Shown here: positions 1,091-58,301 of the stretch, piece after piece
Layout of the letters: every line of letters starts with the position of its first letter
Numbering within the stretch: position 1 is the stretch's first letter
DNA from: Ostreococcus lucimarinus
Lineage: Eukaryota
Direction: 5' to 3' (one strand)
Length of the DNA stretch: 64,000 bases
Assembly: GCA_000092065.1 (NCBI GenBank)
Contig: CP000582.1
Notes under the pieces: model-generated
What the model saw: the letters and a program-made list of their open reading frames with translations, nothing else
The model's database searches: none
What the model was told of the DNA's origin: nothing
Made by a program: the position numbers and the translations under genes

Positions 1091-2520
1091 CAGAATTTGT
1101 CCGCACGACACCGAGTTCTAATACTTATTCTCATACTGCGATCTTACCGGGAGTTCGAGGCGTACATCGCCCTAAATCGTATGGAGACAACTTCTCTGTG
1201 AACAGGAAAGGATATCCAATCTGGCCTTAAGTCTCCTGTAATATTGCAATTTTCATTGTACAAACTAGCTCTGCCGTCGTTCTAATCACTAAATTGAAGT
1301 TCACGCTTGCAGCTTCGTGTAAAAGTCGATTTCACGTTCGTAGGTATTTGCGTATTCGGATTCTCAAAGGTAGGCCCCTTGCCAGAGAGCCCCGTTATCT
1401 CTTGAATATTCGCCCAGTCGCCGCGCGTAAAGTTGTAGGTTTGCATCAAATTCAGGACGTCTGGTATACCATCTAGTTCTTTACCCCCTCGAGCTTGACT
1501 AAAAAGCGGACGAGTGAGCAACCGTTTTGTCAAAGAAGCGTACCAGAGGCAAAACTCAAGTTGAGTGCTGCAGCTCCTACCACTTGATCGAAAATGTTGA
1601 TACAACTCTGATAACAGCCGCTGCGATTTTGACTTTGACGACAACTTCCCCAAGAGACTTGGGAATCGATGAGTGTGGCGTTCAGCCTGACCAAATGTTT
1701 CTCTTGAGCCTCTGACGGCAGAGGTTGGCAGGACACATGAAACTATGTTCGCAGGAGGCATCATGGTCCAGTTTTGTGTCTTGTTTATTGTCGTCGCAAA
1801 CACATCTCCTTCTGCTACACGTGACGATGCCGCAGCAACGTGCACAATTCTTTGCAACTCGTTTGTACTGTCTCGCGGGCGCATACACGCATAGTTTTCT
1901 TGAACGAACAGAGGGATCATGTCTGAGTGCTGGAAAACCAGATTAAGCCTCTCATCGAGTGTTTTTAATGGGCTTGGACGAAAAAGAACATCTATTGCTT
2001 GAAAAACACTTGTGGCGACATCTTTTTTCGAAATTTCATTCCTTCCGTGATGCTTCGAGCTCATGCCCCATAGTTGTAGCTGGTTGATACTGGATCGAAG
2101 GTCATTGTTGTTTGCTTCTATGAGAGCATCAACTGCGTCGCTATCAACATCCAAGCGTTGTGAGGCTACAATTTGATTCAAGTACTTTCGGAGCTGGAGC
2201 TTATTTGGCCGTTGGAAAGGTAAATCGACACAATAGTTTGCAAGAGTCTTTAGTTTTTGTGAATATCGGTCGTTGCAGATGCATATGATGGGAATGCGCG
2301 TGTGTTTGATGACTTCTATCAACTCCGAGATACCACCCCGATCGCCACCAGCCATACCATCTACTTCATCCATGATCAGTGCAGTCTTTGTTGATCGCAA
2401 ACCATCAATACCGATGTTACGATTAGTTACAAACTCTCGAACAGTACTCGCCAATGTTCCCGCTATCCCATCACTTACTGCTCCAGTCTTACCTCTTGAA
2501 TCGCTTGCGTTTACGTTCAA
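1091..2520. repeat. Copy A of a 1.43-kb segmental duplication, identical to 3383..4812
   Basis: ORF-track pairs at a constant +2292 offset have identical translations (1294/3586, 1527/3819, 1530/3822, 1682/3974, 1725/4017, 2273/4565). Direct reading confirms identity from cagaatttgtccgcacgac through gcgtttacgttca. Divergence is sharp at both ends. Confidence 0.85.
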
Positions 2521-3141
2521 CGACGTGCACACGTCGTCGCCGAACAAATACCCCGCCCCTCGAGGGGAAAGCCCCCAGCCGGAGACGTCCTCGGGGTCGC
2601 TCCAAAGCAAATCGCACATCGCGCCTTCGTGCGGCACCTCTTGTTTACGATCGATCGTTCGAATCTGATCGATCGTCGTGATGCTCGGGGACAACCCCCC
2701 GTGCACGCAAAATATCTTGTTATCTATGAGCGCAGACAACGAAAGGTAATCGAACACATCCGTGCAATATCGCCACACGTTGACGCTCCCGTATTTGCGC
2801 AAACACTCGTCGTAAAACCCGTACACCTGCGTGATCTGTCGACACTCGTGATTCCCCCGAATGAGATACATTCGATCCGGGTACCTCACCTTCAGCGCCA
2901 GGAGCAACAAAAACGTCTCCACGCTGTAAAACCCGCGATCGACGAAGTCCCCCATGAACAAATAGTTTGTATCCGGGCAGTCGCCGCCGACTTTAAACAG
3001 TTCCAACAAATCGTAAAACTGCCCGTGAATGTCCCCGCATATCGTCATCGTTTGCTCGTTAATCCACCGCACGCGATCGAAATCGTCGCTCGAAAAGTCA
3101 CGCAGCGACGCCTTCGCGTCCCGCATCGCCGAACACATCAA
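1282..3141 (-). pseudogene. Chimeric in-frame ORF of 619 aa: a truncated PP2A/PP4-type catalytic core (about residues 25-230) fused to the RFC1 large-subunit region downstream of the P-loop, from the duplicated copy. Probably a non-functional chimera.
   Basis: The N-terminal 205 aa carry the PPP motifs GDIHGQ, GDFVDRG, GNHE, HGG and SPRGAGY but lack the C-terminal His and tail. The junction at 2520/2521 continues in-frame into [12 protein letters not shown], identical to residues 88-498 of the ORF at 3574..5070. The fragment lacks the Walker A motif GAPGIGKTT. Confidence 0.55.
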
Positions 3142-3350
3142 TGTTGAGCGAAATATCTAACGCGGTGACGCTGTGCGTGAGCGCACCGCTGGATATGTAC
3201 GTCACGCCTGTTTGGCCGATGGCGTGGACGGTGTCTAGGGTGACGTTACCCGACGCCTCGGTGTCGACTCTGCCGTCGATGAGACGCACGGCGGCGGTCA
3301 TGTCCTCCACGGACATGTTGTCGAGCATTAAACGAGTGACGCTGCCCGTC
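3098..3350 (-). pseudogene. C-terminal fragment, about 85 aa, of quinolinate phosphoribosyltransferase (NadC/QPRT). Truncated at its 5' side at the duplication boundary.
   Basis: [64 protein letters not shown] matches the conserved QPRT C-terminus (MLDN...EVSGN.TL......tGVD.IS.GALTHS...LD.S). No upstream QPRT sequence is present. It overlaps the PP2A-fragment reading frame by about 40 nt. Confidence 0.6.
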
Positions 3351-3382
3351 GGGACGTTCGGGTCGTGCAGAATTTGTTCGTG

Positions 3383-4812
3383 CAGAATTTGTCCGCACGA
3401 CACCGAGTTCTAATACTTATTCTCATACTGCGATCTTACCGGGAGTTCGAGGCGTACATCGCCCTAAATCGTATGGAGACAACTTCTCTGTGAACAGGAA
3501 AGGATATCCAATCTGGCCTTAAGTCTCCTGTAATATTGCAATTTTCATTGTACAAACTAGCTCTGCCGTCGTTCTAATCACTAAATTGAAGTTCACGCTT
3601 GCAGCTTCGTGTAAAAGTCGATTTCACGTTCGTAGGTATTTGCGTATTCGGATTCTCAAAGGTAGGCCCCTTGCCAGAGAGCCCCGTTATCTCTTGAATA
3701 TTCGCCCAGTCGCCGCGCGTAAAGTTGTAGGTTTGCATCAAATTCAGGACGTCTGGTATACCATCTAGTTCTTTACCCCCTCGAGCTTGACTAAAAAGCG
3801 GACGAGTGAGCAACCGTTTTGTCAAAGAAGCGTACCAGAGGCAAAACTCAAGTTGAGTGCTGCAGCTCCTACCACTTGATCGAAAATGTTGATACAACTC
3901 TGATAACAGCCGCTGCGATTTTGACTTTGACGACAACTTCCCCAAGAGACTTGGGAATCGATGAGTGTGGCGTTCAGCCTGACCAAATGTTTCTCTTGAG
4001 CCTCTGACGGCAGAGGTTGGCAGGACACATGAAACTATGTTCGCAGGAGGCATCATGGTCCAGTTTTGTGTCTTGTTTATTGTCGTCGCAAACACATCTC
4101 CTTCTGCTACACGTGACGATGCCGCAGCAACGTGCACAATTCTTTGCAACTCGTTTGTACTGTCTCGCGGGCGCATACACGCATAGTTTTCTTGAACGAA
4201 CAGAGGGATCATGTCTGAGTGCTGGAAAACCAGATTAAGCCTCTCATCGAGTGTTTTTAATGGGCTTGGACGAAAAAGAACATCTATTGCTTGAAAAACA
4301 CTTGTGGCGACATCTTTTTTCGAAATTTCATTCCTTCCGTGATGCTTCGAGCTCATGCCCCATAGTTGTAGCTGGTTGATACTGGATCGAAGGTCATTGT
4401 TGTTTGCTTCTATGAGAGCATCAACTGCGTCGCTATCAACATCCAAGCGTTGTGAGGCTACAATTTGATTCAAGTACTTTCGGAGCTGGAGCTTATTTGG
4501 CCGTTGGAAAGGTAAATCGACACAATAGTTTGCAAGAGTCTTTAGTTTTTGTGAATATCGGTCGTTGCAGATGCATATGATGGGAATGCGCGTGTGTTTG
4601 ATGACTTCTATCAACTCCGAGATACCACCCCGATCGCCACCAGCCATACCATCTACTTCATCCATGATCAGTGCAGTCTTTGTTGATCGCAAACCATCAA
4701 TACCGATGTTACGATTAGTTACAAACTCTCGAACAGTACTCGCCAATGTTCCCGCTATCCCATCACTTACTGCTCCAGTCTTACCTCTTGAATCGCTTGC
4801 GTTTACGTTCAT
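3383..4812. repeat. Copy B of the 1.43-kb segmental duplication. It lies inside the intact RFC1-like gene and includes about 190 bp of its 3' flank.
   Basis: Same as copy A. Copy B is embedded in a complete 498-aa RFC1-like ORF, so it is the likely parental copy. Confidence 0.85.
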
Positions 4813-5070
4813 CGTTTGAAATCCAAGTTCTCGGCAAATAAGGATGGCACTCGTGGTCTTGCCAATTCCAGGCGCTCCACTTATGAGTATTGCTTTTCGG
4901 GTCGACACTTTTGAAGCTTTTCCTGTGGCTTGATTCCCTGGCCAGTTTGAGAGCCAAGTTCGGAGAGTAGCGATGGCGCTACTATTTCCGACCAAGTCTG
5001 CGAGTACTCTCGGAGAAAATTTGTCAGTCCACAAATTTGCAGAATTTTCTATACCATAGTAGGCATGCAT
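3574..5070 (-). CDS. RFC1: Replication factor C large subunit (RFC1-like) AAA+ clamp-loader module. It has no BRCT region, which may be absent or on an unseen upstream exon.
   Basis: 498-aa ORF with LWTDKFSPRV...ILISGAPGIGKTT (Walker A), [15 protein letters not shown] (Walker B/sensor) and ICICNDR. The C-terminal domain resembles RFC1. An in-frame TAG lies 63 nt upstream of the ATG. Confidence 0.8.
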   Translation of the reverse strand: MHAYYGIENSANLWTDKFSPRVLADLVGNSSAIATLRTWLSNWPGNQATGKASKVSTRKAILISGAPGIGKTTSAILICRELGFQTMNVNASDSRGKTGAVSDGIAGTLASTVREFVTNRNIGIDGLRSTKTALIMDEVDGMAGGDRGGISELIEVIKHTRIPIICICNDRYSQKLKTLANYCVDLPFQRPNKLQLRKYLNQIVASQRLDVDSDAVDALIEANNNDLRSSINQLQLWGMSSKHHGRNEISKKDVATSVFQAIDVLFRPSPLKTLDERLNLVFQHSDMIPLFVQENYACMRPRDSTNELQRIVHVAAASSRVAEGDVFATTINKTQNWTMMPPANIVSCVLPTSAVRGSRETFGQAERHTHRFPSLLGKLSSKSKSQRLLSELYQHFRSSGRSCSTQLEFCLWYASLTKRLLTRPLFSQARGGKELDGIPDVLNLMQTYNFTRGDWANIQEITGLSGKGPTFENPNTQIPTNVKSTFTRSCKRELQFSD

Positions 5071-28829: not shown

Positions 28830-29018
28830 AGCGAAAGCTTGAAAACTGAACGAAAGCTCTCACAGCGCCCTCGCGTTCCCGCACTCGCGCGCGCTCGATG
28901 TGATGGGCGCCGAGCGCCCCGTGCAAGCAGCACCGAAAGTGAAGCCAAAGCTTGAAAACTGAACGAAAGCTCTCACAGCGCCCTCGCGTTCTCGCACTCG
29001 CGCGCGCTCGATGTGATG
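28793..29018. repeat. Tandem duplication, 2 x about 113 bp with 2 mismatches, spanning the RNF14-like stop codon and the UreF start
   Basis: gcgccgagcgccccgtgcaagcagcaccgaaagtgaagc[g/c]aaagcttgaaaactgaacgaaagctctcacagcgccctcgcgtt[c/t]tcgcactcgcgcgcgctcgatgtgatgg occurs twice back-to-back. The second copy supplies the UreF ATG. Confidence 0.8.
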
Positions 29019-29843
29019 GAAGCGTTCGTTTTAATCGACCCGTTGCTACCGACGGGCGCGTTCGCGCACTCGCTCGGGCTCGAGCCCGCGCGAATCGCGC
29101 GCGCGGTCGGGACACTGGACGAGACGTCTCGCGAAGCCTCGCGCGCGGTCGAGACGTACGCGCGCGAGTGCGCGCAGAGCGCGATCGACGGTCAACTTCC
29201 GTTCGCGCTCGCCGCGCGCGCGCTCGCGGTGCGAGCGAACGAAAAACGCGCGCGCGAGGGAGACGAGGACGGGACGACGCGCGCGTGGCGAGCGGCGAAC
29301 GCGGAGTGCGCCGCGCTCTGCGCGTCGAACGCCGTGAATCGACGCGCGAGCGCGGGCACGGGCGCGGCTTTACTACGAGCGTCGATAGTGGCATTCGGCG
29401 AGGACAGAAGTTGGTACTTGAGGGCGATTAAAAGAACGCTGCGACGACCGCCGCCGCTCGGCTTGGGCGAGGCGCACCACGCGTGCGTCTTCGGCGCGGT
29501 GAGCGCGATCGCGAATTTAGACGCCGAGGCGTGCGCGCGCGCGTACGTGTACTGCATCATGCGCGATGTGTGCTCGGCGGCGACGCGATTGAACGCGAGC
29601 GGACCTTTGGAAACCGTCGCGGCGTTGCGGCGTTGCGTCGAAGACGCCGAGGCGGCGTGCGCCGTCGCCGTCGCCGAGTTCAACGCCTCCACCGTCCGCG
29701 CGTCGACGATCGACGACGACGACGACGATGACGACGACGCCATCATGAATTATCTCCGTCGCGCGCCGGCGACGTCGGCACCGATATACGAAGCCGTCCA
29801 GGGCGCGCACGACCACGCGCGCGCGCGCCTCTTCAACTCCTAG
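29013..29843 (+). CDS. UREF: Urease accessory protein UreF
   Basis: LIDPLLPTGAFAHSLGLE, CIMRDVCSAATRLNASGPLE, and C-terminal YEAVQGAHDHARARLFNS are colinear with plant UreF. Confidence 0.85.
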   Translation: MMEAFVLIDPLLPTGAFAHSLGLEPARIARAVGTLDETSREASRAVETYARECAQSAIDGQLPFALAARALAVRANEKRAREGDEDGTTRAWRAANAECAALCASNAVNRRASAGTGAALLRASIVAFGEDRSWYLRAIKRTLRRPPPLGLGEAHHACVFGAVSAIANLDAEACARAYVYCIMRDVCSAATRLNASGPLETVAALRRCVEDAEAACAVAVAEFNASTVRASTIDDDDDDDDDAIMNYLRRAPATSAPIYEAVQGAHDHARARLFNS

Positions 29844-30063
29844 CCTTCGCGTCGCGCGCACCTCTTCGACGGCCCGCGCGCGCGCGTCCCGCTGTATTTT
29901 CATTCATAGTTGTATTTTCATCCTCTGTACGTCACTCGCGCGCATTCGCGAACGCGCGAATTCGCGCGTAAAAAGGTCCCTTCGCGTCCGGAGGTCGGCC
30001 GCCCTTTCGGAAATCTCGTCAATCTCGACGCCCACTGTTTACCCATATCAGAAAATATGAGCC

Positions 30064-30133
30064 CGACGTTTCGAAACGTCGTTTCGGAACGTCGTTCCGA
30101 AACGACGTTTCGAAACGACGTTCCGGAACGACG
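30064..30133. promoter_or_regulatory. Array of 5.4 tandem 13-bp units G(A/T)CGTTYCGRAAC. Each unit contains a 10-bp perfect palindrome (GTTTCGAAAC or GTTCCGGAAC). The array lies about 270 bp upstream of the DUR3 ATG.
   Basis: Read directly: gacgtttcgaaac gtcgtttcggaac gtcgttccgaaac gacgtttcgaaac gacgttccggaac gacgg. Units 2 and 3 are reverse complements of each other, so the whole array is dyad-symmetric. The motif is not found elsewhere in the window. Confidence 0.5.
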
Positions 30134-30400
30134 GCGCGTGCATCGCCCGAGCCGACGCCGGCGCGGCAGTGCGAGACGCGCGAGTCGACTCCAAAGGTGC
30201 GACCGCGAGCGCTCTTCGCGCCATCTTCGTCACCGTCCATCGCGCGCGCGCGTTGTCTTCGTTCGAGCGCGCGGCGACGCGGCGACGATGGAGGCGAATC
30301 ACGATGGCGGCGCAAGTGACGACGCGATGACGTCGCGATGATTGCGCGATGCGGGGACTGACGATGACGCGCTTCGATCGGGCGACGCAGACACGCACAC

Positions 30401-32545
30401 TTGACATCAGCACACATGTCTTGCGAACAGTATGAAACCCTGGTCGGGAGCTCGTGCGTTCGCGACACGAGCTTCTTCGGCGGGAAAGCCGTGCTCCCCG
30501 AAGGCGCGGGCTACGGTATCGTCATCGGTTTCGGTTTGTTCTTCTCCCTCGCCACGGCGATCATCATGGGTCTCGATAAGCGTTACGGTGGGACGAACAT
30601 CTCGTCTGAATACTTCAACACCGCCGGTCGTAACGTGAAGACGGGTTTGACGGCGTCCGTCATCGTGTCCCAGTGGACGTGGGCGGCGACGCTCTTGCAA
30701 TCGTCCAACGTCGCGTACCAATATGGTGTCTCCGGACCGTTCTGGTACGCGTCCGGTGCGACGATTCAAGTTTTGCTCTTCGGTATGCTTGCCATTCAGG
30801 TGAAGCGATACGCGCCTAACGCGCACACTATTTGCGAAATCATCGACGCTCGATGGGGCGCGAACGTGCAAAAGGTCTTCATCTTCTTCTGCTTCTTGAC
30901 CAACGTCATTGTGTCTTCGATGCTCGTGCTCGGTGGTGCCGCCACGGTGAACGCGCTCACGGGTATGAACACCACCGCCGCTGGTTTTTTGATCCCGATC
31001 GGTGTCATTGCGTACACTATGGCTGGTGGCTTGAAGGCGACCTTCTTGGCGTCGTACATCCACACCGCCATCATCTTCGCTATTCTCATCACCTTCATCT
31101 ACATCGTGTACGCGGCCGACACCAAGCACGGTCTCGGCTCTCCGAGCAAAGTGTACGATCTCCTCCAGAGCGTCGCTCAGCGCAGTCCGACTTCAACCGA
31201 ATGCGTCGCTCGCCTTGCCGCCGACCAAAACTGCGGTCCGGTGGCCAAAAACCAAAAGGGCTCTTACTTGACCATGCTCTCTGAGGGTGGTGTCATCTTC
31301 GGTATCATCAACATCGTTGGTAACTTCGGTACCGTTTTCGTCGACCAATCGTACTGGCAATCCGCCATCGCGGCCAAGCCGAGCTCCTCCACCAAGGGTT
31401 ACCTCCTCGGCGGTCTCGTTTGGTTCACCATCCCCTTCGCCCTCGCCACCGCCATGGGTCTCGCCACCGTCGCTCTCGACTTGCCGGTCACCTCTGACGA
31501 AGCTGGTAAGGGTCTCGTGCCGCCCGCCATCGCCACCCACTTGATGGGTAAGGGTGGTGCCGCTGCGATCACCATCATGCTCTTCATGGCCATCGTGTCC
31601 ACGGGCTCCGCCGAGCAAATTGCCGTCTCCTCCTTGTTTGCGTACGATGTGTACCGCAAGTACATCAAACCGAACGCCACGGGTGAAGACATCCTTCGCG
31701 TGTCTCGTTACGGTGTCGTCGCCTTCGGTATTTTCATGGGTATCCTCTCCTTGATCCTCGACGAGCTTGGATTGTCCCTCGGTTTCGTGTACCTCATGAT
31801 GGGCATCTTCATCGGCTCCGCCGTCATGCCCATCTCTTTCGTTTTGACTTGGGACAAGGCGAACGCCAAGGGTGCCGTCATCGGCGCCATCAGCGGCCAA
31901 GTTCTTGGCTTGGTCACGTGGATCGTCACCGCTCAAGGCCTGTACAAGGCGGTCACCATCAAGACGCTCGGCGAAAACTACCCGATGCTCGCCGGTAACA
32001 TCGTCGCCATTTGCTCCTCGGGCATCATCCACGCGTTCATGTCCTTCCAAGATCCGCAAAACTTTGACTTCAGCACGCTGAACGATCGCATTCAACTCAT
32101 CGACGACAAGCTTCCGGAATTCGAACAAGATGAAGATTCCAATCCGAAGCAGCTCGAGGCCGCGCTCGCGTGGATCAAGAAGTGGGGCATTGGCTTCACC
32201 TTCGTCATGATTGTCCTCTGGCCGGTCTTCTCGCTCCCGGCGGGTTGCGGCACCTCCGCAGGCTGCGGTGTCTTCAACAAGGGTTACTTCAACCTTTGGG
32301 TTGGCATCGCCCTCGCGTGGGGCACCGTCGCCACCGCGGTGATCATCCTCCTGCCTGTGTACGAATCTTGGGATTCCATCTCCGTCGTCTTGAAGGGCAT
32401 GTTCACCAACGACGACGTGCACATGCGCATGGATGTCCTCGAAAGCAAGATCGACGCGCTTCTCGCGCCGGGCTCCACGAAGTCTACCGAGAAGTTGTCT
32501 CAGCAACCGGGTTACCGTGCGAAGCTCATCGCCGGCCACCTGTAA
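30401..32545 (+). CDS. DUR3: High-affinity urea transporter DUR3 (sodium:solute symporter family)
   Basis: 714 aa with about 15 TM helices and SSS-family features. The urease accessory genes flank it. Codon GC is moderate. A TGTAA sits about 130 nt past the stop. Confidence 0.85.
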   Translation: MTSAHMSCEQYETLVGSSCVRDTSFFGGKAVLPEGAGYGIVIGFGLFFSLATAIIMGLDKRYGGTNISSEYFNTAGRNVKTGLTASVIVSQWTWAATLLQSSNVAYQYGVSGPFWYASGATIQVLLFGMLAIQVKRYAPNAHTICEIIDARWGANVQKVFIFFCFLTNVIVSSMLVLGGAATVNALTGMNTTAAGFLIPIGVIAYTMAGGLKATFLASYIHTAIIFAILITFIYIVYAADTKHGLGSPSKVYDLLQSVAQRSPTSTECVARLAADQNCGPVAKNQKGSYLTMLSEGGVIFGIINIVGNFGTVFVDQSYWQSAIAAKPSSSTKGYLLGGLVWFTIPFALATAMGLATVALDLPVTSDEAGKGLVPPAIATHLMGKGGAAAITIMLFMAIVSTGSAEQIAVSSLFAYDVYRKYIKPNATGEDILRVSRYGVVAFGIFMGILSLILDELGLSLGFVYLMMGIFIGSAVMPISFVLTWDKANAKGAVIGAISGQVLGLVTWIVTAQGLYKAVTIKTLGENYPMLAGNIVAICSSGIIHAFMSFQDPQNFDFSTLNDRIQLIDDKLPEFEQDEDSNPKQLEAALAWIKKWGIGFTFVMIVLWPVFSLPAGCGTSAGCGVFNKGYFNLWVGIALAWGTVATAVIILLPVYESWDSISVVLKGMFTNDDVHMRMDVLESKIDALLAPGSTKSTEKLSQQPGYRAKLIAGHL

Positions 32546-32716
32546 GTCGTGACCCGACTGACGCGGCGAACGCCACGAGCGAACCGCGCAAAGCTACATT
32601 TATTCACTTTACAGCAGTACGAAGTCATCCGTTGTTGCTTCAGATAGATTTAGTGATCGAAATTCTTCATTCAGTATTGTAATTTTTTACATTAATATCT
32701 TTCCTGCAACCGTCGT

Positions 32717-35239
32717 TCACACGATAAAGTATCTTCTCGCGAGGGGCAGCTCTTGCGCAGGCTGACTTTTCAACACGACACCGTCTGCTCGAACCTCATA
32801 TGTTTCTGGATCGACTTCTATCCTCGGGCACGCGTTATTCAAAACCATATCGTCTTTGCTAAGGCCTCTGCATTTGACCACAGCCTCGACGCGTTTATTG
32901 AGACCGTACTCGGCGCCAACATCCGCGGCGGCGGCCGCGGCGCTCACGAACGCTATGCAAGTCTTCCCCGGTTTGAGAGCACCGAACATTCCTCGCATGA
33001 TGACAGGCTCAGGAGTCGGAATACTTGCATTTGGATCACCCATCTGCGCCCACGCGATTTGTCCGCCTTTAACGACGATTTCTGGCTTGGCGCCGAAGAA
33101 AGCTGGCTTCCAAATGACGACGTCGGCGAATTTTCCCACTTCTAGGCTGCCGACCTTGTGCGACATGCCATGAGCTATGGCAGGATTGATGGTATACTTC
33201 GCTACATACCGTTTCACCCGAACGTTATCCGCACCCGAGTTTGCATCTTCTTCAAGAAAACCTCGTTGTTCTTTATTAGAGTGTGCGGTTTGCCACGTGC
33301 GGCGAATGACTTCTCCGACCCGTCCCATGGCTTGCGAGTCGCTCGCCATGATACTAAGCGCACCCATATCGTGAAGAACATCTTCGGCCGCGATAGTTTC
33401 TGCACGAATGCGTGATTCAGCAAACGCAACGTCTTCCGGGATCTCGGGATCGAGATGATGGCACACCATGAGCATATCCAGATGCTCGTCCACGGTATTT
33501 TTTGTGTATGGTCGTGTTGGGTTCGTGGATGAAGGAAGGACCATTTTTTCACCACAAACCTTGATGATATCCGGCGCATGGCCACCACCAGCACCTTCAG
33601 AGTGATACGTATGAATAGTGCGACCTTTGAAAGCCTCAATGGATTTTTCGACGCAGCATGATTCGTTGAGCGTATCCGTGTGAATGGTGACGGCGACGTC
33701 GTACTCTTCTGCAATGGTGAGACAGTTGTCGATCGCAGCCGGTGTTGTGCCCCAATCCTCGTGTAGTTTCATACCGACAGCACCAGCTTTTATGATTTCG
33801 TGCAAGCCTTCGGGCGACGCCGTGTTTCCCTTGCCAGTGAACGCGAAATTGAGTGGTAGCGCATCCGTCGTCTCAAGCATGAACTGCATGTGCGCAGCAG
33901 AGGGCGTACACGTGGTCGCGCACGTTCCCGACGCTGGTCCTGTACCGCCGCCAAGGAGGGTTGTGATGCCGCTAGCGACAGCCTCAGTGCACAGTTGCGG
34001 ACAAATGTAGTGAATGTGCGTGTCCAGTGCTCCCGCGGTGACGATACATCCTTCCGCGGCAATGGCTTCGGTATTCACGCCGACAACCATCCCAGGGGTC
34101 ACGTCAGCGACGTCTGGATTACCACCGTGACCTATACCAACGATGTGACCATCTTTAATGCCGATATCAGCCTTATAAATACCACTATGATCGACTATCA
34201 GTGCGTTCGTGATGATTGTGTCGAGAGAATCAGCGTCGCCGACACCCGCCTGCTGCGACATTCCCTCGCGAAGCGTCTTACCGCCGCCAAATTTGGATTC
34301 TTCACCTTTCATCGTCAAGTCGCGCTCGGGGGTGATGTAAAGGTTCGTATCTCCCAGTCGTACGCGATCACCGATTGTGGGTCCGTACATGTGCGCGTAC
34401 TTGTGTCTCGGAATCATCAACGGCTCACCTTCGCCCAAATCGTCAGCGTCGACGTGCCCGAAGCCGCCGTCGATCACCCGCTTCATGACTTCGTCCAACC
34501 GATCCGCGGTCGCGGGTCCATTCACCAAATTGTTCCCACCTTTGACCACCCGGTTACCAGCGATATTCACCATATTCACAGTTTTCGACTCTCCAGGCTC
34601 GAATCGCACCGCCGTGCCGCTCGGAATGGCCAAACGCGCTCCGTACGCTCGCCGGCGATCAAACGTCAGAAACCGATTCGCCTCGATGAGGTGAAAGTGG
34701 CTTCCCACTTGAATCGGTCGATCACACGTGTTCGTTACCTTCAGTTTTCGTTTCGGTCTTCCCGCCAGGAGCTCTAAAGAATCCTTCGACGTACGAACCT
34801 CCCCCGGCGCCGGTGTCTTCTCCTTTGTCGCCGGAGGAAACGCCTTCTCGCTCGGTTTCGGTAAAAACGATCCCAGCAGCGCGAGTTCGAGATCGACGTC
34901 ATCCGCACATATCGCATCGTGAATCGTGATCAACTTCGTCCCATCGTCGAACGTCGTCTCTATCTGCACGTCGCCCACGAGTTCCGGGACGCCGTCGAGC
35001 ACGTGTCGTCGTCCGAGCACGCGCTTTCCCAAATCCTGCACCTCCACCGACGTCAGCGCGCGCCGTTCCCCGTCCTTATCGAACTTTGGATCTCTCACGA
35101 GCTCGACGCACTGCATCGCGATCAACGCCACGGCCTCCGGGTGGTTCAAACGCATTCCACGCGCGAGTCTTCGCTGCGCCACGCGTCCCGCGGCGAAGAG
35201 AATGTTCAGTTTATCGATCTCACACGGCGTGAGACGCAT
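32717..35239 (-). CDS. URE: Urease, single-chain eukaryotic type (fused gamma-beta-alpha), 840 aa
   Basis: Starts [41 protein letters not shown] (gamma), then the beta and alpha domains with metal-centre motifs (HTHYICPQ, the MVCHHLD His pair, GGGHAPD). The ORF-track start at 35869 is a spurious upstream extension. The ATG was re-estimated at 35239 in ORF-track coordinates. Confidence 0.9.
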
Positions 35240-35485
35240 CGTTCGCGCGCCTTCTTTCGCCGACGACGCCGCGAGCTTTGATATGTTCGTCCGCGTTGGC
35301 GCCCGCGACCCGGCGACGCTTCCGCGCGCGAGAAAGTGCCGCGCGACGCGCGATGCGAAAAGCGCACTTTTCCGCGACCTTTCGCGACGCGTCACCGCGC
35401 GACGCCCCTGGGCGCTTCGACGGCCCGCGCGCGCGACGGCGGCGCGACGGTGGCTCAAAAATCGATCGCGCGACGGCTCGGCGCG

Positions 35486-36286
35486 ATGTCCGGCGACGCG
35501 CACGCGCACGCGCACTCGCACGGGAGCGATGAGGTGGAATTCGGCGAATTGCACGCGCACGACGGCTTGAAGCCGCACCGACACGAGCGGTTGTACGGAC
35601 CGGGATCGTTCGCGAAGCGCCGGAAGGGCGCGAAAGTTCGAGCGCAAACGTTCGCCGATCGCGCGTACACGGTCGGGATCGGAGGACCCGTGGGCACGGG
35701 GAAGACGGCGCTGACGCTGGCGCTGTGTCGAGCGCTGCGGGACGCGTACGACGTCACGGCGGTGACGAACGACATCTTCACCAGGGAGGATGGAGAGTTT
35801 TTGATCGCGAACGATGCGTTGGGAGATGCGAATCGCATTCGAGCGGTTGAGACGGGAGGGTGCCCGCACGCGGCGATCCGGGAGGATATATCGAGTAATC
35901 TGAACGCCGTCGAAGACCTCACGGCGGCGTATCCGGATTGCGATTTATGTTTGATGGAGAGCGGCGGCGATAATTTAGCGGCGAATTATTCGCGCGAGCT
36001 CGCGGATTACATCGTGTACGTCATCGATGTGTGTGGCGGGGATAAGATTCCGCGAAAAGGTGGACCAGGGGTGACGCAGGCGGATTTATTAGTCGTCAAC
36101 AAGTGCGAGCTCGCCGACGCCGTCGGCGCGTCGCTCGAAGTCATGGAACGCGACGCCAAGATCCAGCGCGAGGACGGCCCGGTGGTCATGGCGCAGGTCA
36201 AGAAAGGCGTCGGCGTGCGAGAGATCGCTCAGCACATCCTCGACGATTGGGCCGCGCAGACCGGGCGCGAGAAGAAACCGTTCTAG
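35486..36286 (+). CDS. UREG: Urease accessory GTPase UreG with a His-rich N-terminus
   Basis: [16 protein letters not shown] (His-rich, plant-like), P-loop [30 protein letters not shown]. Divergent from urease with about 245 bp between the start codons. Confidence 0.9.
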
Positions 36287-36474
36287 TTTTAGTTTCGGTT
36301 TAGGGTTTAGGGTTTCCCGAAGAGACCTTTGCACTTTTTCACTTTTTCGCCGCATTAAAACTCTTCACTCTTCGTCGTCGAGCGCGCCGCTCGCCGACGT
36401 CGAGCCTCGCGGCTGAGCGTGATCACGCGTCTGTCCTCGCGCGCGCGGCGCGCGCGGCGCGCGAGACGGCGCAG

Positions 36475-37485
36475 ATGCGTCGCGCGTTCGCCGGTGACTC
36501 TTCAGCGCGGCGCGCGTGTTCCATCGCCGCGCTCGACGTCACGCGCGCCAACGGCCGTTCCGCGGTGACGCGATGCTACGCGGAGTACCCGGTAAAGTAT
36601 CTCACGCCCAAGCGCGGGATCGATGGCGATTGCGATTGCGCGTGGGCGTACGCGGTGAACATGGGCGGCGGTTTGGTGAGCGGCGACGCGAGCGGGACGA
36701 CGATTCGCGTGGACGACGGATGCGCTTTGGCGTTGGCGACGCAAGGCACGCAAAAGGTGTATAAACATAATAAACGACGATGGAATGACGATGCGAAGGC
36801 GGGCGAGGGTGATGGACGATCGAATGTGGGGGAGACCACGTCGGCGCTGTACGCGAGCGTCGGCGACGGCGGGTTGTTGGCGTTGCTACCAGATCCTACG
36901 CAAATATTCGCCGATGCCGTGTTTCGACAGACGCAAACGATCGATATGCACGAACATGGGTCGTGCGTGTGCGTGGATTGGATAACGGCGGGAAGGGTCG
37001 GGTACGGAAACGAGCGATGGGCGTTCAAGAGGGCGGACGTGCGCACGCGCGTGACGTCAAACGGCGAACCCGTCGTCGTCGAAGCCACGCGTCTAGAGGC
37101 GTCTTCGCGCGATTCACTGAACGCCGAAATCTCGCTCGCGATGAGAATGGGTGCGGTGAACGTGGTCGCGTCGCTCATCATCGTCGGTCCCCGCGTGCGG
37201 GAACTCGCGAAATCGTGCGGCGATTGGGCCCGCGATTCGGCGACGCGCAGTATGGCTCACGGCGGCGCTTCCTGGGTGCGCGCTTCCCCTGGCAGCGTCA
37301 CACAAACCGACCCACAATCAAAATTTTTCGTTTCTGCGAGCGATTTACCCCTCCCACACTCCGGCATCGTCCTCCGTTTCTTCGCCGCGGATTCCGAATC
37401 CGTGCAAGACGTCCTCCGCTCGCTTCTCGCCCCGCTCGCGTCTCAGCTCGGCGCTCCTCCCTACGACGAGCGCGGCGGTTCCTGA
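36475..37485 (+). CDS. URED: Urease accessory protein UreD
   Basis: RSAVTRCYAEYPVKYLTP, GGGLVSGD, LALATQGTQKVYK, LLALLPDP, VDWITAGR, and C-terminal SLLAPLASQLGAPPYDE are colinear with plant UreD. Confidence 0.85.
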   Translation: MRRAFAGDSSARRACSIAALDVTRANGRSAVTRCYAEYPVKYLTPKRGIDGDCDCAWAYAVNMGGGLVSGDASGTTIRVDDGCALALATQGTQKVYKHNKRRWNDDAKAGEGDGRSNVGETTSALYASVGDGGLLALLPDPTQIFADAVFRQTQTIDMHEHGSCVCVDWITAGRVGYGNERWAFKRADVRTRVTSNGEPVVVEATRLEASSRDSLNAEISLAMRMGAVNVVASLIIVGPRVRELAKSCGDWARDSATRSMAHGGASWVRASPGSVTQTDPQSKFFVSASDLPLPHSGIVLRFFAADSESVQDVLRSLLAPLASQLGAPPYDERGGS

Positions 37486-37524: not shown

Positions 37525-37935
37525 CTAGTCATTCTTCGGCGTCCCCATTCCCGCCGCGGCCTCCGCGTCTCGCTCGTCGTGCGGCCGCTCGCCCGTCTTC
37601 AGTCGCTTCACCGCGCGCTTGTAATCCTTCGTCTTCATGTGGCTCTCCAGCCCCTCGCGCGTGCTGAACCTTCGACCCGTGGCGACGGCAAAGTACGTCC
37701 CGACGTCCTCATCGATCGCCGTCTGATTCGCGCCCTCGATCAGGTCGAGCGCGGTCGCGCCGCGTTTCAGCGGTGTCCCGTTCGCGGCGGCGGCGGCGGC
37801 GTGAAACGCCTCGAAACGCACGTCCGCGTGCGTCGAACTGGCGTACCCGACGCGGCGAGCGGTTTTACATAAATGCGTCTTCGTCGCGCGACCGGCGGTC
37901 TTGCGCTTGACCTTGCTGCCCTTCTTTTGACCCAT
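37525..37935 (-). CDS. Small basic protein, Bud20/ZNF593-like, with a degenerate C2H2-type motif (ligand residues replaced)
   Basis: MGQKKGSKVKRK... N-terminus. YFAVATGRRFSTREGLESHMKTKDYKRAVKRLK fits the C2H2 spacing YFC..C...F.....L..H....H, but with A/T in place of Cys and Y in place of the second His. Confidence 0.3.
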   Translation of the reverse strand: MGQKKGSKVKRKTAGRATKTHLCKTARRVGYASSTHADVRFEAFHAAAAAANGTPLKRGATALDLIEGANQTAIDEDVGTYFAVATGRRFSTREGLESHMKTKDYKRAVKRLKTGERPHDERDAEAAAGMGTPKND

Positions 37936-56984: not shown

Positions 56985-58301
56985 TCAAAAGGACCCGTGT
57001 CGGGCGACGATTTCTGATACTGATGAACCATTAAGTATGTCTTGACGTATACTGCTCTCAGAAAATACTCGCTTTAAAGCTTCTTCAATCACGATATTTC
57101 CAAACCGTCTTGGGATAATCAGTGTTCCTTCTTGATCACTGAAAATCAAATCTCCCGGACAGCACGAGACGCCATCCAAGCTAATACACTGATTTGTTGA
57201 CTCTACTGTAGCAACACCTCTCACATCAGAGCAGGTTGAACCGGCTGCGTAGACGGGAAAGTTCGAACATTTCACTTCCACTGTATCGCGTGTAAAACCA
57301 TTCGTGACGAAACCGGCGGCTCCCCTCGTTATGGCAATGTGAGCATTAAGATCGCCAAAATATGCTCGTCCCTTCATCGGATTTTCTACTACGATAACGT
57401 CACCGAAGCCGACGTAGTTGTATGATTTTAGAGCACCATAGATTCCCCTGAGATCTTCACTTTCACGAAGAGGCCTTAACTTAAGTGTGCAAGCACGACC
57501 GAAGACCTTGCTCAGTGCGCCTTGTGGTTTTAAGCCGAAGACCACTCGTCCACTTACGCCCATATCATCCAGCGTGTCTGATAAAATGGCACTGGTGAGA
57601 TGTAGTTTGGCGCACCTCAAGCGAGATAGACCAGCGACGCGGTGCGCTAAAGCGATATTGTTTGCAAGAGCGAAGTCAACTTCGTAGTTGATATCAACTG
57701 CTTCTTCTGGCGTAACATGCAGCATGTGTGGTTTGTTCCCTATCCTTCGCCGAGTCAGCTTCGCCGCATCTCTCGTAATGTTGTACAGCCCCATGGTCTC
57801 CACGGTAGTCGTTGGCAAATCAACTGAGTTGGGAATATTTTGGATATCATAGCTCGGCCCTGCCTTTGTCCACGTATACAGTTTATCATCGCGAACAGTG
57901 CACGCGGAGTCATAAACACCGGACATCACGCTCTCGACACCTTTCTTAATCGTTTCTGGATGTATGAACGGGCTTGTGCACAGCGCCTGCACATAGATTT
58001 CGGCATCGAATCGCTCAACTTCGTTCATGAACAGAGTGTTACCGTCCGTCTTGTTCGTGGCCAACGCCTCGTCCCGCTTTAGGAAAACTAACTTTGGATT
58101 ATCGCTCGCAAGAAATTCCGCCACCTTGAAAACATCATCGGACTCAGAGTCCAAGACAACTTTGTCAATAAAAGGACACTCGAAGAGCAACTTTTCCAAA
58201 GTGTGCAGGAAGAGTGGTTTGGAATCCAGCAGTTTCGTGTTCTTGCTCTCTACGCGACTCGATGTACCTTTGCACGGCACAAACGCAACGATCCGCGCCA
58301 T
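56985..58301 (-). CDS. Fusion: N-acylneuraminate/CMP-sugar cytidylyltransferase (CTP_transf_3) N-domain plus RraA-like (class II pyruvate aldolase/MenG-like) C-domain. It lies in a low-GC island.
   Basis: N-terminus RIVAFVPCKGTSSRVESKNTKLL..KPLFLHTLE...VVLDSESDD matches the CMP-NeuAc/KDO synthetase family. C-terminus VGFGDVIVVEN...GDLNAHIAITRGAAGFVTNGFTRD...FPVYAAGSTCSDVRG...CPGDLIFSDQEGTLIIP matches RraA/HMG-CHA aldolase. Local GC is about 47% against about 68% in the flanks. Confidence 0.6.
   Translation of the reverse strand: MARIVAFVPCKGTSSRVESKNTKLLDSKPLFLHTLEKLLFECPFIDKVVLDSESDDVFKVAEFLASDNPKLVFLKRDEALATNKTDGNTLFMNEVERFDAEIYVQALCTSPFIHPETIKKGVESVMSGVYDSACTVRDDKLYTWTKAGPSYDIQNIPNSVDLPTTTVETMGLYNITRDAAKLTRRRIGNKPHMLHVTPEEAVDINYEVDFALANNIALAHRVAGLSRLRCAKLHLTSAILSDTLDDMGVSGRVVFGLKPQGALSKVFGRACTLKLRPLRESEDLRGIYGALKSYNYVGFGDVIVVENPMKGRAYFGDLNAHIAITRGAAGFVTNGFTRDTVEVKCSNFPVYAAGSTCSDVRGVATVESTNQCISLDGVSCCPGDLIFSDQEGTLIIPRRFGNIVIEEALKRVFSESSIRQDILNGSSVSEIVARHGSF

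Follow-up and report, generated by a model that had tools for sequence, protein, structure and literature searches.

The genes of the urease system are dispersed in plants. In fungi, horizontally transferred metabolic clusters are known, including the nitrate-assimilation cluster and the GAL cluster, which has been re-acquired, and the idea of the "selfish operon" is said to come from Lawrence and Roth. The clustering of urea genes in Mamiellales was reportedly first noted in the O. tauri genome paper. Urea utilization is a trait that is used in interpreting the nitrogen ecology of picophytoplankton. A green-algal "urease assembly" neighborhood is listed as previously reported by Foflonker and Blaby-Haas (2020, PMC7826186), and green-algal neighborhoods were concluded in the same work to arise by rearrangement and not by recent transfer of intact clusters. 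We analyzed a 64,000-nt stretch of Ostreococcus lucimarinus DNA (the window) that carries such a cluster, and our results indicate that the intact five-gene cluster of about 8.5 kb has probably passed laterally between three or more Ostreococcus species, entering unrelated integration sites after loss of the resident copy.

All five proteins of the cluster are identical to GenBank proteins of O. lucimarinus CCE9901 (Table 1); therefore, the cluster as such is already known, and it is textbook-level for Mamiellales genomics. The first-pass annotation had named five contiguous components, and each was correctly placed and identified, given the Pfam, TIGR, and structure matches and the GenBank identity; its guess of Mamiellales was correct as well. 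UreF and UreD belong to their families by the Pfam gathering score (PF01730, 52 bits against a cut-off of 23.3 bits, and PF01774, 152 bits against 27, respectively), and UreG matches the cobW/UreG family PF02492 and reaches 248 bits against the 204.2-bit cut-off of the equivalog TIGR00101. The alpha part of the urease scores 905 bits against the TIGR01792 cut-off of 680, and the Pfam domains Urease_gamma, beta, alpha, and Amidohydro_1 follow one another in this order in a single open reading frame, of which residues 1-839 are collinear, end to end, with the pigeon-pea and jack-bean ureases (4G7E, 3LA4). The metal-site motifs of the jack-bean/plant enzyme are kept (HxH in DTHIHY, the carbamylated Lys in GMKLHEDWG, and the flap MVCHH). 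The aligned metal-site set comprises the HxH, the carbamylated Lys, two further His, an Asp, and the flap Cys-His, the roles of which we take to be those established in the jack-bean and Klebsiella urease structures. DUR3 scores 845 bits to the solved plant "Urea-proton symporter DUR3" 9J7C (residues 12-683 against 18-680) and matches the other solved plant DUR3 chains 9X5U and 9VIM over its full length; its NCBIfam assignment is to the SSS superfamily only. The functional reading is supported by family scores above curated cut-offs and by full-length structure matches of DUR3 and urease. UreE is absent from the five-gene cluster, and plants likewise have no UreE; a nickel transporter was not found in the window.

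Table 1. Features of the urea cluster and its surroundings in the O. lucimarinus window.
Feature	Positions	Strand	Basis or remark
Shared block	28984-37485		blastn; O. tauri chromosome 15 (L014) and O. mediterraneus (L089) match at 85-90% nucleotide identity
UreF, urease accessory protein, 275 aa	29016-29843	+	XP_001416229.1; PF01730
UreF-DUR3 spacer, 572 bp	29844-30415		includes 13-bp palindromic minisatellite at 30064-30133
DUR3, high-affinity urea/H+ symporter, 709 aa	30416-32545	+	XP_001416230.1; SSF PF00474
Convergent DUR3/urease spacer, 171 bp, GC 0.43; presumed shared 3'-end region	32546-32716		sequence, GC
Single-chain (gamma-beta-alpha) Ni-urease, 840 aa	32717-35239	-	XP_001416478.1; four urease Pfam domains
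Divergent urease/UreG spacer, 246 bp, GC 0.72; presumed bidirectional promoter	35240-35485		length, GC, alignment
UreG, GTPase/nickel chaperone, 266 aa, His-rich N-terminus	35486-36286	+	XP_001416231.1; TIGR00101
UreD, urease accessory protein, 336 aa	36475-37485	+	XP_001416232.1; PF01774
ZNF593/Bud20-like gene, 136 aa; has lost its zinc ligands and is no part of the urea set	37525-37935	-	constant right-hand neighbor of UreD at the ancestral site

Judged from sequence, the nuclear urea set is a functional-looking, complete, plant-type one, consisting of the transporter, the urease, and UreD, UreF, and UreG. By homology, DUR3 would import urea by proton symport, and the single-chain nickel urease would convert urea to ammonium and CO2, in line with the established biochemistry of plant and bacterial ureases. 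A complex of UreD, UreF, and UreG would then activate the apo-urease, with the His-rich GTPase UreG supplying nickel in place of UreE. Ten marine metagenome contigs, independent of one another, show the identical five-gene order (L001-L006, L023, L025, L046, and L089), and therefore the cluster is no assembly artefact. Contig L089, in which the order is unchanged and DUR3 is 94% identical, was assigned to O. mediterraneus, with the MMETSP protein of which its DUR3 shares 99.2% identity.

Given that urease genes are operonic in bacteria and that the Rfam model of the Helicobacter ureB antisense RNA matches the urease gene, we considered acquisition of a bacterial urease operon by Mamiellales through horizontal transfer. 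We give this origin almost no credence, and it is effectively refuted by the features of the genes themselves. The fused gamma-beta-alpha chain is typical of eukaryotes and aligns collinearly with plant ureases along 839 residues. Outside Mamiellales, the urease is closest to eukaryotic proteins, with 62-65% identity to those of streptophytes, haptophytes, and dinoflagellates. UreE is missing, DUR3 is a transporter of the plant/fungal type, and the gene order is unlike ureABCEFGD. The Rfam match runs antisense to a conserved coding sequence, and this coding conservation accounts for it.

The arrangement had been called operon-like in the first-pass annotation, and in this it was wrong. A polycistronic operon was rejected on the orientations (+ + - + +) and the spacers of 171-572 bp; the locus, having genes on both strands and individual spacers, is a gene cluster of the eukaryotic kind. 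The transcription units are separate: urease and UreG form a divergent pair, DUR3 and urease a convergent one, and UreF and UreD have spacers of their own (188 bp between UreG and UreD). The distances that had been estimated for the divergent pair (about 245 bp) and the convergent pair (about 170 bp, AT-rich) agree with our measurements. The urease/UreG spacer contains the core CCTTTCG and a CGCGCGCG box, both of which are conserved in O. tauri and L018, and TGTAA-like motifs, which we infer to be poly(A) signals, occur on both strands of the DUR3/urease spacer. The GC content of urease (0.553) and DUR3 (0.577) is indeed lower than that of UreF (0.690), UreG (0.625), UreD (0.633), and the window as a whole (mean, 0.621). 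Reading this as a mark of high expression is a weak argument, given that low GC3 is found in urease only (0.60) and that the GC3 of DUR3 is normal (0.78), its low GC residing in codon positions 1 and 2 (0.52 and 0.44), as fits a membrane-protein composition. Low GC3 in a high-GC genome is no indication of high expression. The distinct history that had been offered as the other explanation fared better in that the history of these genes does differ from that of their flanks, on the basis of divergence and synteny and not of GC.

Across Mamiellales, all five genes are linked within about 9-14 kb, with their order changed, in Ostreococcus, Bathycoccus, and Micromonas-like lineages. The order is HPP-UreG(-)/urease(+)-UreF-UreD in Bathycoccus, with DUR3 4.5 kb further, and urease-UreF-UreD-DUR3(-)-UreG(-) in Micromonas-like contigs. 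With non-homologous genes of a single pathway lying side by side and remaining linked in different taxa, the locus counts as a eukaryotic metabolic gene cluster. The claim that such an arrangement is rare had to be dropped, given this linkage throughout Mamiellales, the annotation of the genes under these names in GenBank, and the earlier report of the green-algal cluster. Coordinated nitrogen-responsive regulation, as proposed in the first-pass annotation, would be plausible; expression data for the five genes were not found in the literature searched. It could be that the clustering has no regulatory meaning and that the genes are neighbors by descent or inertia in a very compact genome, each being independently regulated. 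The separate spacers and mixed orientations would fit, as would the lack of conservation in most of the noncoding DNA, where the alignment with O. tauri in the UreF-DUR3 spacer is limited to the 71 bp directly preceding the DUR3 ATG and only about 30-45 bp align upstream of UreF; a candidate shared motif, GACCTTTCG, is also unenriched across the window (27 observed, 26.8 expected). We find this reading somewhat unlikely, given that the genes have stayed together in three genera despite repeated internal rearrangement, that their linkage survives relocation to at least four genomic contexts, that the block was moved or retained as a complete functional set, and that the divergent pairing of UreG and urease is conserved in both Ostreococcus and Bathycoccus.

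Our findings suggest that the new point is the history of the cluster; its relocation may have been remarked on outside the literature searched. The ancestral Ostreococcus arrangement is PHD-DPM2-RWD/IBR-[UreF-DUR3-urease-UreG-UreD]-Bud20-like-2OG oxygenase, and it is still kept by O. lucimarinus and two other lineages. The block shared with O. tauri and O. mediterraneus begins about 25-45 bp before UreF and ends at the stop codon of UreD; homology breaks off at both ends, and these end points are identical in all three pairwise comparisons of the species. In O. tauri, the chromosome 15 neighbors of the block are a 253-aa gene and an ABC gene, and at the site on chromosome 2 that is orthologous to the O. 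lucimarinus site, RWD/IBR runs directly into the 2OG oxygenase with a gap of 50 bp. RWD/IBR also directly adjoins the 2OG oxygenase in lineage L016/L017, and the ZNF593/Bud20-like gene is missing along with the cluster at the empty sites. The O. tauri chromosome 15 site is empty in lineage L020/L021 (40-bp gap), and the O. mediterraneus block sits in a third genomic context. As is expected under lateral transfer, the location of the block differs among species and the orthologous sites are empty.

Divergence of the block was compared with that of flanking genes as the four-fold-site difference (d4) among O. lucimarinus (A), O. tauri (C), and O. mediterraneus (D). Across the five cluster genes (about 1,220-1,230 sites), d4 was 0.227 for A-C, 0.249 for A-D, and 0.249 for C-D, compared to 0.44-0.70 for flanking orthologues. 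The background consisted of five chromosome 2 orthologues, located in O. tauri within a region of lower GC3 that may evolve atypically, and five chromosome 15 genes, the latter compared with one lineage. Between O. lucimarinus and O. tauri, the flanking orthologues gave a pooled d4 of 0.571 (Fisher p = 4e-51) and trigger factor alone gave 0.437 (Fisher p = 2e-8), and the O. tauri chromosome 15 flanks gave 0.423 against L020 (Fisher p = 4e-20). NG86 dS was 0.21-0.40 for the cluster and 1.1 to saturated for the flanks. The published mean genome identity of O. tauri and O. lucimarinus is 73.8% (PMC5371798), compared to 86-88% for UreF and UreD. Within the same pair of genomes, the divergence of the block thus lies far below that of flanking and background genes, as lateral transfer predicts. 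In these genomes, the divergence of the block amounts to roughly one-half to one-third of that elsewhere, and we therefore infer that it spread laterally.

Vertical inheritance alone would require an ancestral cluster, independent translocations in O. tauri and O. mediterraneus, and slower evolution of the block, for example through codon-usage selection or a locally low mutation rate. The cluster tree, ((A,C),D), has a topology compatible with the accepted species tree, and therefore the conflict is one of relative distances and not of branching order. Urease and DUR3 are, in addition, intrinsically conserved proteins, and the low GC3 (0.55-0.75) of the chromosome 2 control flanks in O. tauri could inflate their divergence. 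We nevertheless regard vertical inheritance alone as unlikely, given that the cluster genes are not slow elsewhere. In comparisons with lineages P, X, and Y, they reach a d4 of 0.47-0.51, in agreement with the flanks; where the cluster occupies the O. lucimarinus site, in lineage P (L029) and lineage Y (L032), cluster and flank values are 0.472 versus 0.462 and 0.503 versus 0.545, respectively, a ratio near 1. UreF and UreD rank with the fastest evolvers of the proteins compared: their identity falls to 43-64% toward the remaining Ostreococcus-like lineages and to 37-42% between genera, yet within the set of three species it is 86-88%. The low GC3 of urease gives no sign of strong codon bias, noncoding DNA aligns as well (between urease and UreG and in the promoter-proximal stretches of UreF and DUR3), and two independent translocations would have needed identical end points.

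In the lateral spread that we favor, the donor would in the simplest case be the O. lucimarinus lineage, a direction drawn by parsimony alone because O. lucimarinus holds the block at the ancestral site. Ectopic integration in the recipients may have restored or replaced urea utilization, and hybridization, DNA uptake, or a virus are candidate vectors. [quoted passage not shown] A prasinovirus as the carrier between species is, however, very unlikely, given that no close relative turned up when 2.9 million viral contigs were scanned with urease and DUR3 as protein queries, the single match being one 4.5-kb contig with 69% identity to urease, and that viral genes flank the block in no species. 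An imperfect direct repeat of about 36 bp brackets the O. tauri insertion (0 of 500 shuffles reached its score), and it could be a shared 3'-UTR motif instead of a target-site duplication. No flanking repeat was found at the O. mediterraneus block, and searches for mobility machinery of the block gave none.

Taken as a whole, the explanation in which we are fairly confident is that of a plant-like urea cluster made of separate transcription units whose intact block has spread laterally. The block would be a eukaryote-to-eukaryote "selfish cluster," akin to a bacterial genomic island, in free-living green picoalgae. If true, this would be a clean and datable case of whole-pathway transfer between ecologically important marine algae, would directly support the view that physical clustering in eukaryotes can persist because loss and recovery may affect a cluster as one unit, and would mean that urea utilization is no stable lineage character in the Ostreococcus group. 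All three species can be cultured, and O. tauri can be transformed.

Compared with the bacterial ureABC-EFGD operon, the Ostreococcus cluster has homologous enzyme, UreD, UreF, and UreG functions, but its subunits are fused, its strands are mixed, its spacers are separate and of eukaryotic style, UreE is lacking, and it includes a eukaryotic SSS-family transporter and is not polycistronic. The plant system is alike in its collinear urease with the same metal-site motifs, the His-rich N-terminus of UreG, the full-length DUR3, and the accessory set, and differs in that the O. lucimarinus genes are contiguous within 8.5 kb. With the transferred clusters of fungi, the block shares a complete nutrient pathway of non-homologous genes in one heritable unit, patchy presence and absence, and discordance between cluster and genome. 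It differs from them in that donor and recipients are congeneric green picoalgae, in that the discordance is in level of divergence and location and not in gross tree topology, and in that no donor-specific signature or vector was found for it. The closest system, the O. tauri/Mamiellales urea cluster (UreABC, Dur3, UreF, UreG, and UreD in GenBank), consists of the same five genes, and the cluster on O. tauri chromosome 15 has the same internal order and orientation with proteins 86-95% identical, as opposed to the chromosome 2 context in O. lucimarinus. For this block, our data suggest recent transfer of an intact unit, opposite to the published view that green-algal neighborhoods arise by rearrangement (PMC7826186).

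The five urea genes of O. lucimarinus lie where the first-pass annotation had placed them, and each gene call was confirmed by Pfam, NCBIfam, and PDB comparisons; the coordinates are those of the mechanical ORFs cut back to ATGs. All five predicted proteins are O. lucimarinus CCE9901 GenBank entries on an 895,087-bp chromosome record, and the size of this record, together with synteny with O. tauri, suggests that the window belongs to O. lucimarinus chromosome 2. The start codons of the divergent urease and UreG genes are 246 bp apart, the convergent DUR3 and urease genes share a 171-bp spacer of 43% GC, both as first described, and the five-gene arrangement was found again in independent metagenome contigs. 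The description of the cluster was thus correct, but the cluster as such is not new and is already annotated: GenBank and UniProt name these genes as a urea set, and O. tauri chromosome 15 carries them in the O. lucimarinus order. The O. tauri genome paper reportedly noted adjacent urea genes, and Derelle 2006 and Palenik 2007 are said to describe the O. tauri urea cluster. A green-algal urease-assembly neighborhood has also been reported previously (PMC7826186). The argument for an operon was weak and did not hold, given that the five genes are divided between the two strands and have separate spacers. We considered the adjacent Bud20-like gene as a sixth urea gene and rejected it because it is a homologue of ZNF593/Bud20, a ribosome-biogenesis factor family. 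A match to RF02514 (the Helicobacter 5' ureB sRNA, 5_ureB_sRNA) was likewise rejected as an RNA gene, given that it lies antisense to a conserved part of the urease coding region and is almost certainly a by-product of that conservation.

Features of the urea cluster and other segments of the window
Feature	Position	Strand	Remarks
UreF	29016-29843	+	identical to XP_001416229; Pfam family member
DUR3	30416-32545	+	identical to XP_001416230; solved plant DUR3 structures match full length
Urease	32717-35239	-	identical to XP_001416478; fused gamma-beta-alpha chain
UreG	35486-36286	+	identical to XP_001416231; above equivalog threshold
UreD	36475-37485	+	identical to XP_001416232; Pfam family member
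Bud20-like gene (orf136)	37525-37935	-	136 aa; both zinc-binding Cys and second His replaced
113-bp tandem duplication	28794-29019		copies 98% identical
13-bp palindromic array	30064-30133		5.4 tandem copies of a 13-bp unit with 12-bp palindrome CGTTTCGAAACG; 283-352 bp upstream of DUR3 ATG
RF02514 match	33982-34273	+	70 bits, above gathering score; urease alpha domain on opposite strand
RFC1 C-terminal domain genes	1282-5070	-	two in tandem, one fused to a calcineurin-like phosphoesterase domain; GC 0.46-0.49, GC3 0.43-0.54
Cytidylyltransferase and RraA-like fusion gene	56985-58301	-	GC 0.48, GC3 0.49; outlier in 62% GC window

The location of the cluster differs among lineages. The orthologous site on O. 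tauri chromosome 2 (Cupin_5, PHD, DPM2, RWD/IBR, 2OG oxygenase, ARM/HEAT, and trigger factor) is without urea genes, only 50 bp separating RWD/IBR from the 2OG oxygenase, and a related lineage (L016/L017) has the same empty site; both empty sites, in O. tauri and in L016, also lack the Bud20-like gene. The chromosome-15 insertion point in O. tauri falls between a 253-aa gene and an ABC gene; in a further Ostreococcus lineage (L020/L021), a spacer of 40 bp lies there. Further lineages came from a metagenome survey with DUR3 as the query. One contig is O. mediterraneus (L089; DUR3 99.2% identical to the MMETSP protein), and its block stands in a third, unrelated context, adjoining large ORFs of no known kind and an isochorismatase-domain gene. 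In two other lineages from the survey, P (L029/L030/L082) and Y (L032-L034/L043 and L010), the cluster lies between RWD/IBR and the Bud20-like gene, exactly the O. lucimarinus site, which is therefore ancestral and at which the Bud20-like gene is the constant neighbor of UreD. In lineage X (L018/L019/L028), the cluster is translocated beside ATAD3 and partly inverted; the inversion takes in UreD and the Bud20-like gene, and a 43-bp Bud20-like remnant adjoins UreG. One lineage Y contig (L010, 543-10000) has 9.4 kb with two large ORFs between UreG and urease, where L032 and L043 have only ~0.8 kb. These ORFs encode a 1370-aa Cys-rich repeat protein and a 1320-aa protein; neither matches Pfam, and the latter is distantly similar to ORFs adjoining the cluster in L018.

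Blastn homology in all three pairings of O. lucimarinus, O. tauri, and O. mediterraneus begins ~25-45 bp upstream of the UreF ATG and ends at the UreD stop codon. Within these limits, nucleotide identity is 85-90%, the urease/UreG spacer included, and the five genes pooled show 91-92% amino-acid identity and four-fold-site differences of 0.227 (O. lucimarinus-O. tauri), 0.249 (O. lucimarinus-O. mediterraneus), and 0.249 (O. tauri-O. mediterraneus). Between O. lucimarinus and O. tauri, the flanking orthologues show a four-fold-site difference of 0.571, an amino-acid identity of 56-75%, and an NG86 dS of at least 1.1; trigger factor alone, the best-behaved control, gave 0.437 for the same species, and the comparison of the O. 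tauri chromosome-15 flanks with L020 gave 0.423. The cluster-versus-flank contrasts were highly significant, with a background divergence that rests on ~10 genes. Genome-wide, the mean identity of O. tauri and O. lucimarinus is 73.8% (PMC5371798). UreF and UreD are 37-42% identical between genera, 43-64% across other Ostreococcus-like lineages, and 86-88% among the three species. At the ancestral site, cluster and flank values for O. lucimarinus agree with one another against P (0.472 versus 0.462) and against Y (0.503 versus 0.545), whereas against O. tauri the cluster divergence is 0.4 of the flank value; we regard this internal control as decisive. The O. tauri chromosome-2 flanks lie in a lower-GC3 region, near the candidate mating-type region reported on that chromosome (PMC8557840). 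The RWD/IBR proteins of O. tauri MT+ and MT- share one 90% cluster, and the locus is therefore not an ancient gametologue pair. The cluster tree was consistent with the species-tree topology, with no contradiction. The P (L029) and X (L018) clusters are only 0.18 apart at four-fold sites, with 94% amino-acid identity, despite the translocation in X, which may reflect a second recent movement or plain sister species.

The O. lucimarinus copy looks native, given its ancestral site and neighbors and a divergence from P and Y proportional to that of the flanks. Those in O. tauri and O. mediterraneus look as if they had been acquired from the O. lucimarinus lineage or a close relative, given their common end points, non-orthologous sites, and, at least in O. 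tauri, an empty ancestral site. The near-equal three-way distances suggest that the events were closely spaced or formed a chain of transfers. An imperfect direct repeat of ~36 bp brackets the O. tauri insert; no bracketing direct repeat was found at the O. mediterraneus insert. A viral vector was rejected, given that IMG/VR scans with the urease and DUR3 proteins returned nothing close. Collectively, the sequence evidence for lateral mobility of the cluster as a unit within Ostreococcus is substantial, not yet conclusive; we did not find such mobility reported in the searchable literature.

Synteny across the Mamiellales, a comparison proposed in the first-pass annotation, showed the five genes linked and reordered in Bathycoccus (HPP-UreG(-)/urease(+)-UreF-UreD, then DUR3 ~4.5 kb away) and in Micromonas-like lineages (high GC, n=3; urease-UreF-UreD-DUR3(-)-UreG(-)). 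The linkage thus outlasts repeated internal rearrangement, which argues for selection on linkage or inheritance as a block. In both Bathycoccus clades (L008, 5816-8146; L012, 4501-7201), an HPP-family membrane protein gene (PF04982) directly adjoins UreG, and a PP2C-kinase gene lies in the 4.5 kb between UreD and DUR3. One lineage (L035-L042, L090) has a DUR3 80% identical to that of the window, with no urease or accessory genes beside it in the available 4-10 kb of flanking DNA; this DUR3 is either unclustered or of a second type.

Co-regulation of the five genes is putative, and our literature search located no expression data for them. A GACCTTTCG core is conserved in the urease/UreG spacer, and the cluster spacers hold 7 of the 27 one-mismatch matches in the window. 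Given that 26.8 matches were expected, we rejected GACCTTTCG as a shared cis-element; the matches in the cluster spacers are a weak lead toward a candidate element. The 13-bp palindromic array has 3-5 copies in natural O. lucimarinus contigs; none of the other lineages has it, O. tauri and O. mediterraneus included. Because it is O. lucimarinus specific and variable in copy number, it was rejected as a conserved regulatory element and treated as a minisatellite. At the equivalent place, the O. tauri UreF-DUR3 spacer (L014, 15113-15392) has three copies of an unrelated 91-bp tandem repeat; the spacer is repeat-prone in both species. The 113-bp duplication covers the last 30 nt and stop codon of RWD/IBR, the spacer, and the UreF ATG, and is present in the window, L001, L004, and L006 and not in L002, L003, and L005; it is therefore polymorphic in natural populations. 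UreF itself is split by a 1-bp deletion in L003 (window-equivalent 29319) and lengthened by a 2-bp insertion in L006 (window-equivalent 29815); these changes are either errors of assembly or defective alleles that occur in nature.

The lower GC reported for urease (55.3%) and DUR3 (57.7%) relative to their neighbors (62-69%) is real, but it is a weak argument for a distinct history or high expression. The DUR3 deficit is confined to codon positions 1 and 2, a pattern that a hydrophobic transporter would be expected to show, and its GC3 is ordinary (0.78); only urease has a low GC3 (0.60 in O. lucimarinus and O. tauri, 0.71 in other lineages). Low GC was therefore rejected as an uninformative mark of foreign origin or high expression. 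[quoted passage not shown]

Given the homology of DUR3, urease, UreG, UreD, and UreF, and the lack of UreE, the most likely function of the cluster is high-affinity urea uptake, which would proceed via DUR3, followed by hydrolysis of the imported urea by a Ni-urease whose activation would depend on UreD/F/G. The UreG N terminus is a His-rich stretch. The nickel transporter that had been proposed as a search target was not found nearby when essentially every long ORF in the 64-kb window was scanned against Pfam. The urease is collinear with the jack-bean and pigeon-pea enzymes over 839 residues and keeps every metal-site motif; a bacterial origin of the cluster was rejected given this collinearity and the eukaryotic-type fused chain. 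The O. lucimarinus system thus resembles eukaryotic ureases in its fused gamma-beta-alpha chain, and the absence of UreE from its cluster is likewise a feature of plants.
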